From Candidatus Omnitrophota bacterium (GTDB taxonomy: Bacteria > Omnitrophota > Gorgyraeia > Zapsychrales > JBDRMG01): a DNA stretch of 64,000 bases. The position numbers and the translations under genes were made by a program. Positions 559 to 60,020 of the stretch are shown here, one piece after another. The stretch lies in the NCBI GenBank assembly GCA_043812495.1, contig JBDRMG010000016.1, positions 66,137-130,136 on the forward strand, in the 5' to 3' direction. Each line of letters starts with the position of its first letter. Position 1 is the first letter of the stretch. The notes under the pieces were generated by a model. That model made no database searches. It was not told the origin of the DNA and was given only the letters and a program-made list of their open reading frames with translations.

Positions 559-562
559 GTGC

Positions 563-687
563 GAACTCCTTTCAATGAGCCCGCCATTGATTCAGTGGCG
601 GGCGATTGACCCCGCACCTTTTATTCATTCAAACTTTTTTAAGTCGTGCGATTTACAAATATCTGAATAAGAAAAAGGTGCGGGGTA
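563..687. repeat. Composite palindromic intergenic repeat made of an A hairpin and a B palindrome. The A module is CCCGCCATTGATTCAGTGGCGGG (580-602). The B module is an ~80-bp imperfect palindrome, ACCCCGCACCTTTT...AAAAGGTGCGGGGT (608-686).
   Basis: Both inverted repeats can be read directly in the sequence. The same modules recur at 17382-17462, 36252-36284 and 59652-59695. Confidence 0.6.
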
Positions 688-729
688 CAACAAATTATAA
701 TTTTGCTATTTCCTTTCTAACGATAAAAA

Positions 730-7624: not shown

Positions 7625-7652
7625 TTTGCGTCCTTTCAATGATTCTCTCCTG

Positions 7653-17316: not shown

Positions 17317-17462
17317 CCTTCAATGAATGCCGAACTTATGGAGCGAGTGAAACGAGCGAACATAAGTTCGTGCATGAATTGAACCCCGCACCTTTTATTT
17401 ATTCAAACATTTTAAAGACGCACGTCTTCAAGGTATTTGAATGAGAAAAAAGGTGCGGGGTC
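17317..17462. repeat. Intergenic repeat made of a C-type hairpin (17317-17370; stem CGAACTTATG / CATAAGTTCG) plus a B-type ~80-bp palindrome (17382-17462).
   Basis: The inverted repeats were read directly. The B arm ACCCCGCACCTTTT / AAAAGGTGCGGGGT is shared with 608-686 and 59681-59695. Confidence 0.6.
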
Positions 17463-17533
17463 TAAGTCGGCCGCAGACTTACGTCGCTATCGCTCCGTAA
17501 GTTTTGGCCTCCTAAGACCTCCTTATGCGAATA

Positions 17534-20156: not shown

Positions 20157-20306
20157 CCCCCTTCAATGACGACACAGCTTATGGAGTCCGCCATTGTTTC
20201 TGTGTCTGTGGCGGACGACATAAGTTGTTTGTCGGAATTGAATCCTTGACAATTTTTGAAATATGGGTGGATATCGCAAGCAACCGAATATCAAAAATTG
20301 TCAAGG
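20157..20306. repeat. C-type hairpin repeat (20157-20235) followed by a perfect 16-bp inverted repeat, CCTTGACAATTTTTGA ... TCAAAAATTGTCAAGG (20244-20306, 31-bp spacer).
   Basis: Read directly from the sequence. The repeat lies in the PilZ gene 5' region and contains TTGACA on both strands. Confidence 0.6.
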
Positions 20307-23580: not shown

Positions 23581-23905
23581 GACGATAAAGGCAAACCCGT
23601 TGTGAAACGGGGGCCCCGGCTTCGCCAAATATTTAACATGTTTGGCTTCGCCGGGCCCGGCATAGCTGAATGCGAAAGCAATTCAGCGAAGCCGGGGCAA
23701 AGCCAAGGGTCCTAATCAAATTTAAACAGGACAGCCTGGCTACCGAATCAAGAACGTTTTGACGATAAACCCTATATAAGGGTCCGGCGTAGCTAAACGC
23801 GAAAGCTTTTTAGCGAAGCCGGAGGCTAACTCGCTGTAAAGCGAGGGCGCAAAGTCAAGGGTCCTATGATGAGGGACGGCCTGGCTGCCGAATCAAAACA
23901 AACGG
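23581..23905 (+). ncRNA. Candidate structured RNA or cis-regulatory leader. Two tandem ~180/145-nt units each begin with GACGATAAA and contain a conserved hairpin, CCGGC-RTAGCT..GCGAAAGC..AGC-GAAGCCGG.
   Basis: The direct repeat runs 23581-23760 and 23761-23905. The inner stem differs between the two copies by compensatory changes (GCTGAAT/ATTCAGC versus GCTAAA/TTTAGC). A plus-strand intrinsic terminator follows. Confidence 0.35.
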
Positions 23906-23953: not shown

Positions 23954-23993
23954 TTGGGCAGCCCCAAGAAACACAAAAAGGAGGTTGGTTAAA

Positions 23994-24920
23994 ATGAGAA
24001 AACACGCAGTCATAACTTTTTTATTTATCGCTTTATTTGTGATGGGAACAACAGTCGCAGCTTTGGCAGGAACAGGCGGCTATACAAAGAATTCGAGCAG
24101 CGGTGGTGCCAGTGGTAATGCCGACATTGTTCCTACTGGTGTTTGTGGTGACGCGGATAACAATGGCGGAATAGACATCGATGACATGATCCTTGTCTAC
24201 GCGTATATTTTTGCCGGTGGCGAAGCGCCTTCATTCTATCTTCAAGCTGACGCGACGGGCGATGATGCGGTAGACATTGATGACTTTCTAAGATTACAAA
24301 ATTACATATTTGGTCAAGGGGAAGCGCCTGCATGTCACAAGTATGTCAGCTGCCTCGATTACAACGGAAATGGAAGAGTCAATACAAAAGACTTGGAAGT
24401 CCTGATAGCCTATATTTTTCAGGGCGGCGATCTGCCGGCTGGCGGCGATGCCACCGGAGACGGCGTGATTGACGTCGATGACTATGCGCAGGTCTTGATC
24501 CCTTACCTTTCCGGCACAAAACTTTTACCACCTTTGTGCGGAAGCAGGGCATTTTACCCTTGCTTGGATGCTACCAATGACGGTCAATCAAGAGAAGATG
24601 ATGTGGAAGCGATCATCAATGCAATTTTCAATGGTCAACCGCTTCCACCAAAAGAGCGCGCAGATTGTACCGGTGATGGCATTGTAGATATTGATGATGT
24701 GAGCTTTGCTATTGACTTTCACTACAATAATGGTCCAGAGCCAGTATGCTCATCGACAGGATTCCTAACACCATCTTCTGTTGAATCCTATTGCGGTGAT
24801 GGCATTTGTAATGGTGCCGAAACATGCGCAACTTGCTCAATGGACTGCGGCACATGTCCTGCTCCAGAGCCAACACCATCTGCCTCGCCTTCTACAACAA
24901 CCAGTACTATGCTTAGATAA
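23994..24920 (+). CDS. Secreted protein with six dockerin-type-I-like calcium-binding repeats and a Cys-rich Pro/Thr/Ser C-terminus.
   Basis: A signal peptide (MRKHAVITFLFIALFVMGTTVAALA) is followed by DADNNGGIDIDD, DATGDDAVDIDD, DYNGNGRVNTKD, DATGDGVIDVDD, DATNDGQSREDD and DCTGDGIVDIDD loops, each followed by an aliphatic helix. An AGGAGG Shine-Dalgarno lies upstream. Confidence 0.7.
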   Translation: MRKHAVITFLFIALFVMGTTVAALAGTGGYTKNSSSGGASGNADIVPTGVCGDADNNGGIDIDDMILVYAYIFAGGEAPSFYLQADATGDDAVDIDDFLRLQNYIFGQGEAPACHKYVSCLDYNGNGRVNTKDLEVLIAYIFQGGDLPAGGDATGDGVIDVDDYAQVLIPYLSGTKLLPPLCGSRAFYPCLDATNDGQSREDDVEAIINAIFNGQPLPPKERADCTGDGIVDIDDVSFAIDFHYNNGPEPVCSSTGFLTPSSVESYCGDGICNGAETCATCSMDCGTCPAPEPTPSASPSTTTSTMLR

Positions 24921-24947
24921 GATCGCAACCATGACACCTAAGCTTAA

Positions 24948-24990
24948 GGGCCCCCGCCATTGAATCAATGGCGGGGGCCCTTTCCTTTTA
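24948..24990 (+). terminator. Intrinsic terminator hairpin (GGGCCCCCGCCATTGAATCAATGGCGGGGGCCC followed by a T-rich run); this is an A-module variant.
   Basis: A perfect palindrome lies 28 nt after the stop and is followed by TTTCCTTTT. Confidence 0.65.
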
Positions 24991-35486: not shown

Positions 35487-35522
35487 GCTCTTCTCCAAAT
35501 CTTGTTTTAGGTAATATCATAC

Positions 35523-35737
35523 GTGTCCAAATTAGCGCAATCTAAGCTTCTCAATTCTATTGATAATTAAGGGGTTACGACAATTTTCAGCTTTTTGAGA
35601 TATGAAATCGCAATTTGGACAGCATGAGCATATTTTGAACAATAAGATTGCCATATGGATTCACATCCGACGGTAATTCTAGGCTCAAATTACGACGGCT
35701 GAACGTATTTACCTGTGTCCAAGCTAATTTGGACAGC
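35523..35737. promoter_or_regulatory. Cluster of TGTCCAA/TTGGACA palindromic sites in the 5' region of the PilX-like gene. The sites are GTGTCCAAATTAGCGCAAT (35523-35541), ATCGCAATTTGGACAGC (35606-35622, inverted) and GTGTCCAAGCTAATTTGGACAGC (35715-35737).
   Basis: Read directly. Sites 2 and 3 also share a 22-nt direct repeat, AATTTGGACAGCxTGAG. A 13-bp perfect inverted repeat, AATTAACCTATCC..GGATAGGTTAATT, is at 35784-35821. Confidence 0.35.
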
Positions 35738-36130
35738 TATGAGGTAATATAAAATATTGTACACTACTTTTCTTAATTAATAAATAATTAACCTATCCCT
35801 TTTTGAAGGATAGGTTAATTGGAAGTGTATCAAAATCCCAGCCGAGATCACATGCCTCACGACTGGCTTTTGGTTGGCAACTGGTTACCCTATCCTAGAA
35901 GGGTCCTTTTAGCTTTGCCGCTCCGCAAGACTACGGAACAACCTTTATCAACCAAAAAAAGTATAGCACTTATTCTAACTTATTCAATAAGCGTAAGTTA
36001 AAAAAGATGCTTTTTAAGAAAACGTTTTCTTATTCACAATCAATGAATGCTAACTCTTAGCATAGCAATAGATTGTAATTTATAGCAAAATAGACAAATT
36101 TCCGGAAAGATTTAATTCTTAATTTATGAC

Positions 36131-36284
36131 TCATTTCAATGAGACCATGACTTATGGAGCAAAGCGCCCGCCTTTTTATTAATATTTTAGCGAGGTCTCG
36201 TCAATTCGATTTTATCGAATTGACGGAACATAAGTCATAAGGTCGAATTGACCCAGCCCGCCATTGATTCAGTGGCGGGCTGGG
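36131..36284. repeat. Intergenic repeat: a C-type hairpin (36131-36247; stem GACCATGACTTATGG / CATAAGTCATAAGGTC) plus an A-type hairpin (36252-36284; CCCAGCCCGCCATTGATTCAGTGGCGGGCTGGG).
   Basis: Read directly. An internal TTGACGAGACCTCGC segment is shared with the copy at 57446-57550. Confidence 0.55.
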
Positions 36285-36332
36285 ATAAAACAAATACAAA
36301 TATAATATTTCATCTATAATTCTGGCGGGAAA

Positions 36333-37226
36333 TTAATTGCTTAAATTGCGAAGGCGCACAACTGAGGAAAGGCTAAAAAGAGTTTGATTGCCGAAAAGAT
36401 TGGGCCTGGATAATTCCAAAAACACTTGGACGGTCTCAGGAGGCGTCGTGGCGCTGCCCCCTGTCCCCGGGCCAGGAGTTCCAAGAAAATAAATGGCGCT
36501 GATATCCGTAGCGATAACACGGACCGAATACCTCGAAGGATTGGCCAAAAAAGGAAAGGGATTATACTGGGAGATATCAGGAGCTGTTTGCGCAAAGGCG
36601 AGGCCGGGACGAAAGAGCTCTTCCAGCCAATTATTAAAAAATGCGCAATCGCCGCCCGGCGGAGGAGCCGGGCAATTAGCTGGAGTTTCTCTGGGAGGTT
36701 CGCAAATACCATCTCCGCACACAATTTGATTTCTTGTCAACCGAATTAATCGATTGGCATTGCTTCCAAATGGACCCAGGGTATGGGGAACCATATAAAT
36801 AATTCTTTCATCATCATACATGACTTCGCGTCCGTCATAGCCCCATTTGATAGGATACGCTGATCCTACTAAAGGCTTAAATATGCTTCCCTGGATATCG
36901 CAAGCAGTCGTCCCGCAGCTTGTCGCGACCGGAACGCGGAACTCCACCGCTCCGCCGACACAATACTGGTCAGGACACTTGTAGATTTTAACTTGCGCCG
37001 ATGCTGACTGGGCAAGCTCAGCAGTGACGCGCTCCATGGCCAGTCGCGCATGCTGCTGCAAATCGATTTGGGTGGAGCTGCGAAAATAGGTATTGCGGAT
37101 GACGACAATCGTTCCAATCAGGCCGATACCGATAAAAATAGATATGGCCAAGACCGTCATGATCTCGACAAGCGTAAATCCCCGTCGATTGAATTTTATA
37201 AATCCTTTATTGAAAAATAAACGCAT
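36333..37226 (-). CDS. Type IV pilin-like / pseudopilin protein (prepilin-type N-terminal cleavage/methylation domain).
   Basis: NRRGFTLVEIMTVLAISIFIGIGL is a class III signal peptide with the G|FTLVE motif. The C-terminal part is Cys-rich. Confidence 0.65.
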   Translation of the reverse strand: MRLFFNKGFIKFNRRGFTLVEIMTVLAISIFIGIGLIGTIVVIRNTYFRSSTQIDLQQHARLAMERVTAELAQSASAQVKIYKCPDQYCVGGAVEFRVPVATSCGTTACDIQGSIFKPLVGSAYPIKWGYDGREVMYDDERIIYMVPHTLGPFGSNANRLIRLTRNQIVCGDGICEPPRETPANCPAPPPGGDCAFFNNWLEELFRPGLAFAQTAPDISQYNPFPFLANPSRYSVRVIATDISAIYFLGTPGPGTGGSATTPPETVQVFLELSRPNLFGNQTLFSLSSVVRLRNLSN

Positions 37227-44825: not shown

Positions 44826-44910
44826 TCTCCTCTCAATGAGGCCCGCACTTATGGACCCCGCTGCCCCGCATTTTGCGGGGCAAGAAGCGGGGAAACATAA
44901 CTGTGCGGCC
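44826..44910. repeat. C-type hairpin repeat immediately upstream of the htpX start. The outer stem is GCCCGCACTTATGG / CATAACTGTGCGGCC and the inner stem is CCCCGC..GCGGGG.
   Basis: Read directly. The GCGGGCCTCATTGAGAGGAG tail resembles the tail of the A module. Confidence 0.5.
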
Positions 44911-44973
44911 GAATTAAACAAATTCAACTATAATTCTTTTCCTTTATCAAGTGAACTCAATAGTTCTAACAAA

Positions 44974-57438: not shown

Positions 57439-57445
57439 TTTATTG

Positions 57446-57550
57446 CCTCCTTCAATGAACACATGATTTATGGAACGAAGTGTCCGCCAATTGCATTAAA
57501 GCAATTGGCGAGATCTCGTCAAAACCTTTGATTTTGACGGAACATAAATT
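57446..57550. repeat. C-type hairpin repeat immediately upstream of the DUF2892 start, with internal hairpins GTCAAAATCAAAGGTTTTGAC and CGCCAATTGC-TTTAATGCAATTGGCG.
   Basis: Read directly. The TTATGTTCCGTCAA and TTGACGAGAYCTCGC segments are shared with 36131-36247. Confidence 0.5.
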
Positions 57551-59629: not shown

Positions 59630-59640
59630 TGTTGTCTCTC

Positions 59641-59695
59641 CTTTCAATGAGCCCGCCATTGATTCAGTGGCGGGCGAATTGACCCCGCACCTTTT
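59641..59695. repeat. Truncated A plus B repeat copy: the A hairpin (59652-59674) and the B left arm GACCCCGCACCTTTT (59681-59695), with no right arm.
   Basis: Near-identical to 563-620, including the CTCATTGAAAGGAG tail that supplies the Shine-Dalgarno for the LolA-like gene. Confidence 0.55.
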
Positions 59696-60020
59696 ATCTA
59701 TTCAAACATATTATTGACTTTTTTTTTATTAAAGGAACGGTGGAAGTCAATATAAGGTCTTCTTTCTCGTATAGAGAAAATATTATTGACTGTTCCATTA
59801 ATAAGGAAAAGACCAATAGGGTGAAAGATTTGTCCTAACTTATTGGAAAAGAAGAAAATAGTTAAATTGAAAGAATGGCCCTGAGGTTCTTTCATGCACC
59901 CTAAATAAGAAAGAACCTTTAAATTATATCTCTTTTTAAGAGAAAAATCAATGAACTCTCGCAAGCAGAATGACACAAATATGGATTGGAATGTCTCAAT
60001 CACCGTCGAAGCTAGAAAAA

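Follow-up and report, generated by a model that had tools for sequence, protein, structure and literature searches.

Hairpin repeats at operon junctions of an Omnitrophota bacterium: a probable lineage-wide family of small non-coding elements spreading as DNA

The leader of metK in a member of the Candidatus Omnitrophota is occupied by a string of palindromes, raising the question of whether these are mobile DNA repeats or parts of a structured RNA. The window analysed here was the whole of a 64,000-nt stretch (assembly GCA_043812495.1, contig JBDRMG010000016.1, forward-strand positions 66,137 to 130,136). A preliminary description of this window, made from the sequence alone, had recognized two modules, A and B, and had proposed either an element resembling repetitive extragenic palindromes (REPs) or transposable elements of the miniature inverted-repeat type (MITEs), or a structured small-RNA family. 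The repeats of the window are probably small non-coding hairpin repeats of a lineage-wide family that spreads at the DNA level, resembling MITEs, Rickettsia palindromic elements (RPEs), bacterial interspersed mosaic elements (BIMEs) and REP doublets forming hairpins (REPINs). This reading draws on the copies and their structure, on a 4-bp duplication at the ends of B, on junctions that are filled in the window and empty in relatives, and on the occupation of ribosomal RNA (rRNA), RNase P RNA and protein genes. The first guess was right in kind, the preliminary interpretation as a whole being partly supported.

Module A (CCCGCCATTGATTCAGTGGCGGG) is a 23-nt hairpin with a GC stem. It occurred exactly at 580-602, 36257-36279 and 59652-59674 and, with 1-2 mismatches, at 24953-24975, the number of matches with up to three mismatches expected by chance in the window being 0.00. 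The B arm ACCCCGCACCTTTT was found five times (at 609/673, 17383/17448 and 59682) against 0.53 expected, and none of 100 shuffles reached five. The two modules were thus borne out at the five loci first given for them. Both full copies of B folded as long hairpins, with -36.7 kcal/mol (z = -8.0) at 609-686 and -41.0 kcal/mol (z = -10.0) at 17383-17461. At 59641-59695, where A and half a B had been described, the A was confirmed, whereas the half-B proved to be a decayed B with a degenerate partner arm (CCACCGTTCCTTT) and a weak fold (z = -2.0 at 59682-59740). All copies of B had perfect terminal arms of 13-14 nt (ACCCCGCACCTTTT / AAAAGGTGCGGGGT), 13 nt of each arm having been demanded by the search pattern itself, and their interiors were very diverse; conserved arms with variable interiors, as first described, held across the 117 copies listed in the scan reported below. 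Copies of B measured 60-110 nt and contained no open reading frame. Compensated variants of the arms were also present (e.g. CCCCTCACC/GGTGAGGGG, CCCCACACC/GGTGTGGGG and TCCCGCACC/GGTGCGGGA). The features of the window containing A or B, in two of which A is held by a third module (the clamp, described below), are as follows, with the strand where one is assigned.

574-608, minus strand: clamp plus A unit, UCAAU-C-G[A hairpin 602-580]C-UC-AUUGA, with closing helix and internal loop, ending at the Shine-Dalgarno sequence (SD) of metK.
609-686: B copy 1, palindromic over 78 nt, its arms being ACCCCGCACCTTTT / AAAAGGTGCGGGGT.
17383-17461: B copy 2, the centre of a tripartite composite.
24946-24982, plus strand: A-variant hairpin with extended GC stem, then a T-run; terminator-like, between convergent genes.
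36252-36284: A hairpin with extended stem CCCAGCCCGCCA…TGGCGGGCTGGG, directly upstream of the clamp element 36136-36251.
59638-59682, minus strand: clamp plus A unit (A at 59652-59674) and SD of the LolA-like gene.
59682-59740: decayed B, right arm intact at 59682-59709, partner arm (CCACCGTTCCTTT) and interior degenerate.

Upstream of the decayed B, in the leader of the LolA-like gene, a short direct repeat, AA(C/A)ATATTATTGACT…, was observed at 59705-59737 and 59777-59809, 72 nt apart.

Further copies were found in other genomes, as the preliminary description had proposed to check. Exact A was present in 19 loci of ~14 metagenome-assembled genomes (MAGs), sampled at one genome per species; nearly all of these were labelled Candidatus Omnitrophota and a few Planctomycetales or Elusimicrobiota. 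A metagenome scan for two B arms 35-65 nt apart returned at least 120 loci, with 117 non-redundant copies among the matches listed. Between the window and these 139 A or B loci, no DNA similarity was detectable beyond the repeats themselves. Carriage by phages was rejected, there being no match to A or B in viral contigs. The module sequences were not found in the literature searched, and the family appears to be undescribed so far. In three MAGs labelled Elusimicrobiota/Planctomycetales (L015 at 3883, L016 at 4548 and L017 at 1661), A was nested in a different repeat, GTCATTGCGA…TCGCAATGAC.

The flanks of B carry the signature of a fixed 4-bp target duplication of TNAA type. Exact 4-nt direct repeats abutted the ends of 53 of the 117 listed copies, as compared to no more than 8 at any other register and to a permutation control with a mean of 9.0 (sd 2.7) and a maximum of 17. 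The repeats were TAAA (30 copies), TCAA (15), TGAA (3), TTAA (3) and others (2), and the longest abutting repeat was exactly 4 nt in 52 copies, giving a sharp peak. One copy of B was nested in another B with a duplication of CAGA. The two full copies in the window lacked a 4-bp flanking duplication. Near-identical contigs were found to differ by insertion or deletion (indel) of hairpin elements, including an indel of a B variant between L070 and L031. The differences between such contigs comprised a 51-nt double hairpin (TCCCGATG…TTCGGGA TCCCGAT…ATCGGGA), present or absent at L083 2713-2765 as compared to L071, and a 145-nt element with arms TCCCTCACCC/GGGTGAGGGA at L070 7124-7269 as compared to L031; insertion polymorphism in these organisms thus extends to further families of hairpins.

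Copies of B were also found inside genes. The description of the repeats as strictly intergenic holds for the window but not for the family, which occupies rRNA, RNase P RNA and protein genes. In RNase P RNA, helix P3 is a B in L044, L063/L085 and L126, directly 5' of AGGAA(A/C)GUCCGG, and an A in L007 and L018; L063 has a further B at the position of P18. Two related 16S rRNA genes contained B-type helices at h6, h9/10 and the tip of h44. The h9/10 helix measured 75 nt in one of these genes and, between identical arms, 300 nt in the other, and the h44-tip helix showed compensated arm changes in one gene with the outer 8 bp kept. The two 16S genes with B-type helices at h6, h9/10 and h44 (L049 6757-8646 and L079 1654-3231) end in …GGAUGGAACAUUUCCUUA without the CCUCC anti-Shine-Dalgarno sequence, and one of them is 1890 nt long as a result of the 300-nt B-armed insert. 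In-frame copies of B were present in at least eight proteins, i.e. leucyl-tRNA synthetase (LeuRS), Fpg, a ComM-type Mg-chelatase, CofD, a Pyr_redox_2 protein, a PMT/TPR glycosyltransferase, a serine recombinase and an adhesin. The open frame continued through the insert and Pfam domains were found on both sides of it or around it; in Fpg the B lies inside the N-terminal domain and in the ComM-type protein between Mg_chelatase and Mg_chelatase_C. The translated arms read PAPF…KRCG or PHLL…KGAG.

Comparison of gene junctions with those of relatives indicated that the window copies are insertions. Nearly all window genes are on the minus strand, and the preliminary description requires correction on this point, as all the genes concerned (i.e. 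metK, the GatB/YqeY gene yqeY and the LolA-like gene) are on that strand with the elements 5' of them. In the window, metK starts with GTG at 558-556 (minus strand) and its 171-nt upstream junction reads TAG TTTTTATCGTTA-GAAAGGA(717-711), insert 710-574, GAAAGGA(573-567)-GTTCGCAC-GTG. The 137-nt insert runs from a left end of 24 nt through B, CAATCG and A to CTCATT, and the features at its two ends are as follows.

567-573, minus strand: functional metK SD, GAAAGGA, the right-hand copy of a 7-bp direct repeat around the insert.
687-710, minus strand: left end of the 137-nt insert, AATAGCAAAATTATAATTTGTTGT, with TATAAT at 699-694 and no acceptable -35 box.
711-717, minus strand: upstream copy of GAAAGGA, a relic SD, where the relatives have the metK SD (alignment with L140 and L141).

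The closest MetK relatives, L140 and L141 (Omnitrophica WOR_2 GWA2_53_43; 82-83% identity), share the gene order of the window (CofD, HPr, PtsI, NTP-transferase, metK), and their gap between the NTP-transferase gene and metK is 39 nt with a single GAAAGGA (TAA TTTTTT…(A)GAAAGGA-N9-GTG). The junction between the DUF167 gene and yqeY is 22 nt in L144, with 72% identical YqeY and the same synteny, as compared to 225 nt in the window, where an AAGGAGG 9 nt after the stop codon has been kept in addition to the functional AAGGAG. For the DUF2892 gene the junction is 10 nt in relatives L148 and L150 and 123 nt in the window. The junction of the LolA-like gene was left out of this comparison, as the upstream synteny differs. 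The fetched loci of the relatives (54 kb) held no clamp, A or B as compared to at least seven elements in the 64-kb window. As the junctions are filled in the window and empty (10-39 nt) in the relatives, with the B-containing composites missing there at metK and yqeY, the window copies appear to be insertions. All 120 MetK homologues listed were fragments of 168-325 residues, those checked ending at contig ends or frameshifts, and gene calls downstream in L140 were fragmented; this hints at poor assemblies or repeat-induced breaks around the locus.

Composite units, in which A and B are only parts, became apparent with the recognition of the clamp. In gene sense this module reads (U)UNAAU-UC-G[stem]C-UC-AUUN'A, followed by 0-3 purines and then GGAG, and comprises a closing helix of 5 bp (UNAAU/AUUN'A), an internal 2x2 loop that is conserved (UC/UC in gene sense) and a stem that varies. 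Its termini are TNAATTCG…CTCATTN'A and the REP head, GTAG/CTAC, is not present. The motif TCAAT(T)CG, described as a conserved linker between modules, is real as a sequence but is not a linker, being one strand of the closing helix with TCATTGA. An interpretation of TCATTGA as an extended complement of the anti-Shine-Dalgarno sequence was rejected, as its spacing to GGAG varies and it covaries with the 5' 'linker'. The stem is the A hairpin at metK and the LolA-like gene and a CUUAUG…CAUAAG hairpin with variable apex at yqeY, the PilZ-domain gene, htpX and the 36136-36251 copy; in other genomes clamps also enclose other GC stems.

Covariation was examined in an alignment of 16 CUUAUG-type clamps from different genomes, in line with the covariance model suggested at the outset. 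Of the cells, 98.3% were paired as compared to ~30% in slid registers, and two-sided changes occurred at 10 of 19 pairs (in 48 cells), a level reached by none of 500 shuffles. One variable position showed C-G, U-A and A-U in the alignment and G-C elsewhere (L027, L001), i.e. all four Watson-Crick pairs. Stems were nearly all Watson-Crick, with G-U in 3 of 303 cells. This covariation applies equally to a DNA hairpin and does not discriminate RNA from DNA. The 2x2 loop, UC/UC in gene sense, is tandem GA/GA on the opposite strand (e.g. at 574-608 and 17320-17382), and because of this the strand antisense to the gene folded better in 32 of 34 clamp elements. A case for strand-specific RNA selection from G-U counts was rejected, as there was no gene-sense bias and the antisense strand folds better.

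A covariance model, R1, was built from this alignment and scanned against 940 kb of short contigs. It detected ~65 elements with a clear separation of strands (50-72 bits on one and 17-27 bits on the other). The usual layout was a divergent, outward-facing pair of clamps around a GC-rich hairpin that was either A-like (23-36 nt) or B-like (60-110 nt); ~20 such pairs with a central hairpin were found, of which 17320-17516 in the window is one. A and B are exchangeable at the same type of site, …GAACTTA-(A or B)-TTAATTCG…. The clamp plus A unit 574-608, with its exact A, formed in minimum free energy (MFE) folds and matched R1 at 572-609 with 20 bits, and the 59638-59682 unit was 100% identical to 566-605 and matched with 29.6 bits. 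The loci first listed were correct, but the window holds more, marked as additional among the clamp-related features below.

17320-17382, minus strand: CUUAUG…CAUAAG-type clamp ending at the yqeY SD (AAGGAG, 17320-17315); R1 69.3 bits, E = 1.6e-16.
17462-17516, plus strand (additional): degenerate outward-facing partner clamp, then a second AAGGAG(G) at 17519-17524; R1 33.8 bits, E = 8.9e-6.
20163-20241, minus strand (additional): clamp in the leader of the PilZ-domain gene, interior hairpin CCGCCA…TGGCGG; R1 48.2 bits.
20244-20306: a different palindrome, CCCTTGACAATTTTTGA…TCAAAAATTGTCAAGG, in the position of B, upstream of the clamp of the PilZ leader.
36136-36251, minus strand (additional): clamp with two internal hairpins and no gene start after it; R1 52.8 bits.
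44833-44917, minus strand (additional): clamp in the htpX leader, closing helix UUUAAU/AUUGAG with G-U pairs; R1 37.8 bits.
57442-57545, minus strand (additional): element of the CUUAUG…CAUAAG type enclosing two hairpins and followed by UCAUUGA and SD, upstream of the DUF2892 gene; without the 5' clamp strand.

A lone TCATTGAAAGGA at 7632-7642 (minus strand), before tsf (EF-Ts) and with no hairpin upstream, may be a clamp relic or may be due to chance.

The relation of the clamp to the SD was examined for 70 clamps. An SD followed at 0-3 nt in 21, a TTGAC -35 box followed 3, several led directly to ATG and the rest were at gene ends or led to nothing; the genes served elsewhere included dnaK, infC, rpmI, acpP (in three species) and purH. 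The copies containing A and B had been described as supplying the SD. The SD does abut the element end in these 21 cases, but the functional SD at metK and yqeY looks like retained or duplicated target sequence and not element cargo, because a further SD-like copy has been kept upstream of the insert, in the place of the SD in relatives. Single cases of SD duplication were those at metK (7 nt), yqeY (6 nt) and L053, where a composite at a stop-SD-start junction lies between the two copies of an 11-nt direct repeat, AGGAGGTTAAA. Clamps adjacent to an SD showed no excess of direct repeats.

Folding and transcription of the units were then considered. The metK insert folded into three independent stem-loops (a small one, B, and the clamp with A) with the SD unpaired at the 3' foot, and most other unit leaders folded similarly with an unpaired SD. 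A promoter scan detected none inside the units; elsewhere in the window organism, promoters are canonical (TTGACA-N17-TATAAT). A candidate promoter in B (TTGAAT-N16/17-TCAAT) was rejected as canonical promoters are used elsewhere with none in the units, and the TATAAT at 699-694 lacks a -35 box. The absence of promoters from the units and the operon-like junctions of the relatives make it most likely that the units are transcribed within polycistronic mRNAs. The form of an intrinsic terminator was seen only at 24946-24982, where the A variant described as a terminator at 24948-24980 is indeed a plus-strand hairpin followed by a T-run, terminating the gene for a dockerin-repeat protein (23985-24920); the B and clamp units have no T-runs. 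By analogy with REP, ERIC and Correia elements, we infer that the units may affect mRNA stability, processing or partial termination between cistrons. A riboswitch or leader RNA for metK was rejected, as there was no Rfam match and the downstream genes (metK, yqeY, PilZ, htpX, lolA-like, dnaK, infC, acpP and purH) are unrelated. No Rfam family reached threshold for the units, hits at E up to 10 being noise alone. A dedicated RNA regulator is disfavoured because the clamps form divergent pairs, their stems are nearly pure Watson-Crick, the antisense strand folds better and the orthologous sites are empty. Occurrence in both orientations, the 3/303 G-U cells, the lack of an Rfam match and the unrelated downstream genes likewise speak against the structured small-RNA family initially proposed, while the copies in many genomes, the 4-bp duplication and the empty orthologous sites support the REP/MITE-like alternative.

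Under the probable reading, namely repeats that spread at the DNA level, B would be a foldback element with invariant 13-14 bp terminal inverted repeats (TIRs) and a free interior, generating a 4-bp duplication of TNAA type on insertion. In this genome the units would have entered operon junctions of very small length, immediately upstream of the ribosome-binding site, and would be mobilised in trans by an enzyme that was not found in this analysis. In polycistronic mRNA the stable stem-loops would keep the SD unpaired at the clamp's foot, and the units, like REPs or Correia elements, could stabilise the mRNA, offer sites for its processing or cause attenuation between cistrons, without being a dedicated regulator.

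Several results weigh against this reading. For B, no perfectly clean empty site bearing one TNAA turned up among near-identical contigs, whose indels were obscured by AT-rich divergence or by arms recombining with each other. The rRNA and RNase P RNA copies had no flanking duplication and showed compensatory evolution like integral helices. The 940 kb yielded neither a transposase nor an autonomous partner: tblastn with RayT and IS200 TnpA queries gave no Y1 transposase, and B-arm pairs more than 300 nt apart were absent, a weak negative in short contigs. The identity of 13-nt B arms across clearly different lineages, one with a 16S rRNA lacking the CCUCC anti-Shine-Dalgarno sequence, is not explained by it. 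A target duplication of whole composites including the SD was rejected as a general rule, repeats of at least 6 nt being present in 2 of 22 divergent pairs as compared to 4% of mismatched controls. Finally, species share the clamp's asymmetric internal loop and its bulge, and an SD lies 0-3 nt from ~30% of clamps, which argues for some selection on the folded single strand.

In an alternative reading, the clamp hairpins directly 5' of the SD are primarily cis-acting mRNA leader modules, selected for translation or stability and not for mobility, and acting as a standby or SD-presenting stem, a 5' stabiliser or an RNase III processing site of first or highly expressed cistrons. Such a role would fit the SD and then the start codon at 0-3 nt after 21 of 70 clamps (several leading directly to ATG), the genes served (dnaK, infC, rpmI, acpP in three species, purH, metK and htpX), the unpaired SD in MFE folds, and the conserved 2x2 loop and purine bulge on covarying stems. 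However, 46 of the 70 clamps are away from a gene start, divergent pairing places one clamp of each pair antisense to any transcript, and the stems contain few G-U cells (3/303) and fold better on the antisense strand in 32 of 34 elements. Orthologous genes of close relatives do without the element and the downstream genes share no function, and a primary leader role is on balance unlikely, if not negligibly so. Also unlikely is a scheme in which A, B and the clamp are interchangeable parts for a lineage-specific factor, installed as cassettes at ribosome-binding sites with duplication of the SD, as in the single cases at metK, yqeY and L053; the factor could be a protein that resembles RNase III or is associated with the ribosome, or a recombinase specific for hairpins. 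If correct, it would tie together mRNA leaders, RNase P RNA (P3 and P18) and 16S helices and would define a mobile system of 5' untranslated region or intercistronic cassettes.

Another proposal is that a lineage-specific RNA- or DNA-binding protein or RNase recognises the helices of the A and B stems, much as L7Ae binds K-turns in the rRNA, RNase P RNA and small RNAs of archaea; it would account for the presence of one helix in RNase P RNA, 16S rRNA and mRNA leaders alike. In its favour, P3 and P18 of RNase P RNA and three 16S helices are made of identical stems, the arms stay invariant from lineage to lineage as the interiors vary, and the outer 8 bp were kept where the inner arm covaried. 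This proposal is nevertheless improbable: in-frame protein copies and 4-bp duplications would be unexpected, compensated arm variants exist (CCCCTCACC/GGTGAGGGG, CCCCACACC/GGTGTGGGG) and no candidate protein was identified. Ordinary independent intrinsic terminators or chance palindromes, to which only the resemblance of the A variant at 24946-24982 to a canonical terminator lends itself, are refuted by the copy statistics and have practically no probability, as exact 23-nt and 14-nt matches recur at expectations of 0.00-0.5, the same sequences occupy more than 130 loci of other genomes, and B and clamp units have no T-runs.

Comparison with known systems places the repeats between several of them. 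RNase III cuts Correia elements at their TIRs, and promoters can be present in them (PMC10969869). With these prokaryotic MITEs (e.g. Neisseria Correia/NEMIS), B shares a short, non-coding form, TIRs, a fixed-length duplication, many copies, nesting, sites just upstream of genes and of -35 boxes and, for B by inference, transcription as a long hairpin. Differences are that B is 60-110 bp as compared to 100-200 bp and is essentially one hairpin, that its duplication is 4 bp of TNAA type and not TA, that no parent insertion sequence or transposase was found, and that its arms span several uncultivated lineages and lie inside rRNA and RNase P RNA genes. In-frame insertion is described for RPEs (PMC10969869). 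Like B in LeuRS, Fpg, ComM and CofD, they are palindromes found both in frame in unrelated housekeeping proteins and in intergenic DNA. Ogata et al. reportedly found an RPE in an RNA gene (tmRNA). Unlike B, RPEs are ~100-150 bp long and restricted to Rickettsia; B has half this length and a clear duplication of 4 bp, and forms a modular mosaic with other hairpins.

BIMEs and REPINs consist of alternating imperfect palindromes with short conserved joining motifs and of two inverted copies around a spacer (PMC3116915, PMC3337134). The mosaic layout and the location mostly between co-transcribed genes are shared with the BIMEs of Escherichia coli and the REPINs of Pseudomonas, and the divergent clamp pairs match them; all window copies lie between same-strand genes, and the 10-39-nt junctions of the relatives indicate operons. 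REPINs are REP doublets mobilised by REP-associated tyrosine transposases (RAYTs). In contrast, clamps lack the GTAG head and abut the SD, no RAYT was found in the 940 kb, the spacer of a clamp unit is an exchangeable hairpin with its own duplication, and the family is common to many species instead of species-specific. Yeast GC clusters, Allomyces double-hairpin elements and the cyanobacterial short tandemly repeated repetitive (STRR) sequences in RNase P RNA are hairpins that colonise variable rRNA or RNase P RNA helices as well as intergenic DNA. Those repeats have other hosts and other sequences, and here whole helices are replaced (P3, P18 and the h44 tip) by hairpins shared with mRNA leaders. 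The family joins traits of MITEs (TIRs and target-site duplication), RPEs (in-frame insertion), BIMEs and REPINs (divergent mosaic) and the organellar and cyanobacterial helix repeats.

Omnitrophota and the neighbouring candidate phyla are represented by metagenomes only, and their non-coding DNA is essentially unannotated. The family accounts for recurrent 'conserved' intergenic sequence, odd extensions of 16S and RNase P RNA and short foreign peptides in housekeeping proteins, and probably explains some assembly breaks. Through it, the Rickettsia-type occurrence of palindromes within protein and RNA genes extends to uncultivated bacteria that are free-living or episymbiotic. The family also provides a tractable data set, with hundreds of copies and a fixed duplication of 4 bp, in which to seek the mobilising enzyme and to ask whether hairpins at ribosome-binding sites affect operon expression.

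Two further observations concern the surroundings of the A loci in the window. Upstream of the dockerin-repeat gene 23985-24920, which ends at the terminator-like A variant, two tandem c-di-GMP-I riboswitch aptamers were detected on the plus strand at 23667-23747 (35.8 bits) and 23814-23892 (54 bits). The A hairpin 36252-36284 and its clamp lie in a gene-free region of 835 nt (35498-36333) upstream of a 960-aa gene that looks pilus-associated. Three copies of TGTCCAAATT(AGC)/GCTAATTTGGACA were present in this region in inverted arrangement, with arms at 35505-35536 and 35723-35754, and these may be operator sites or an unannotated RNA.

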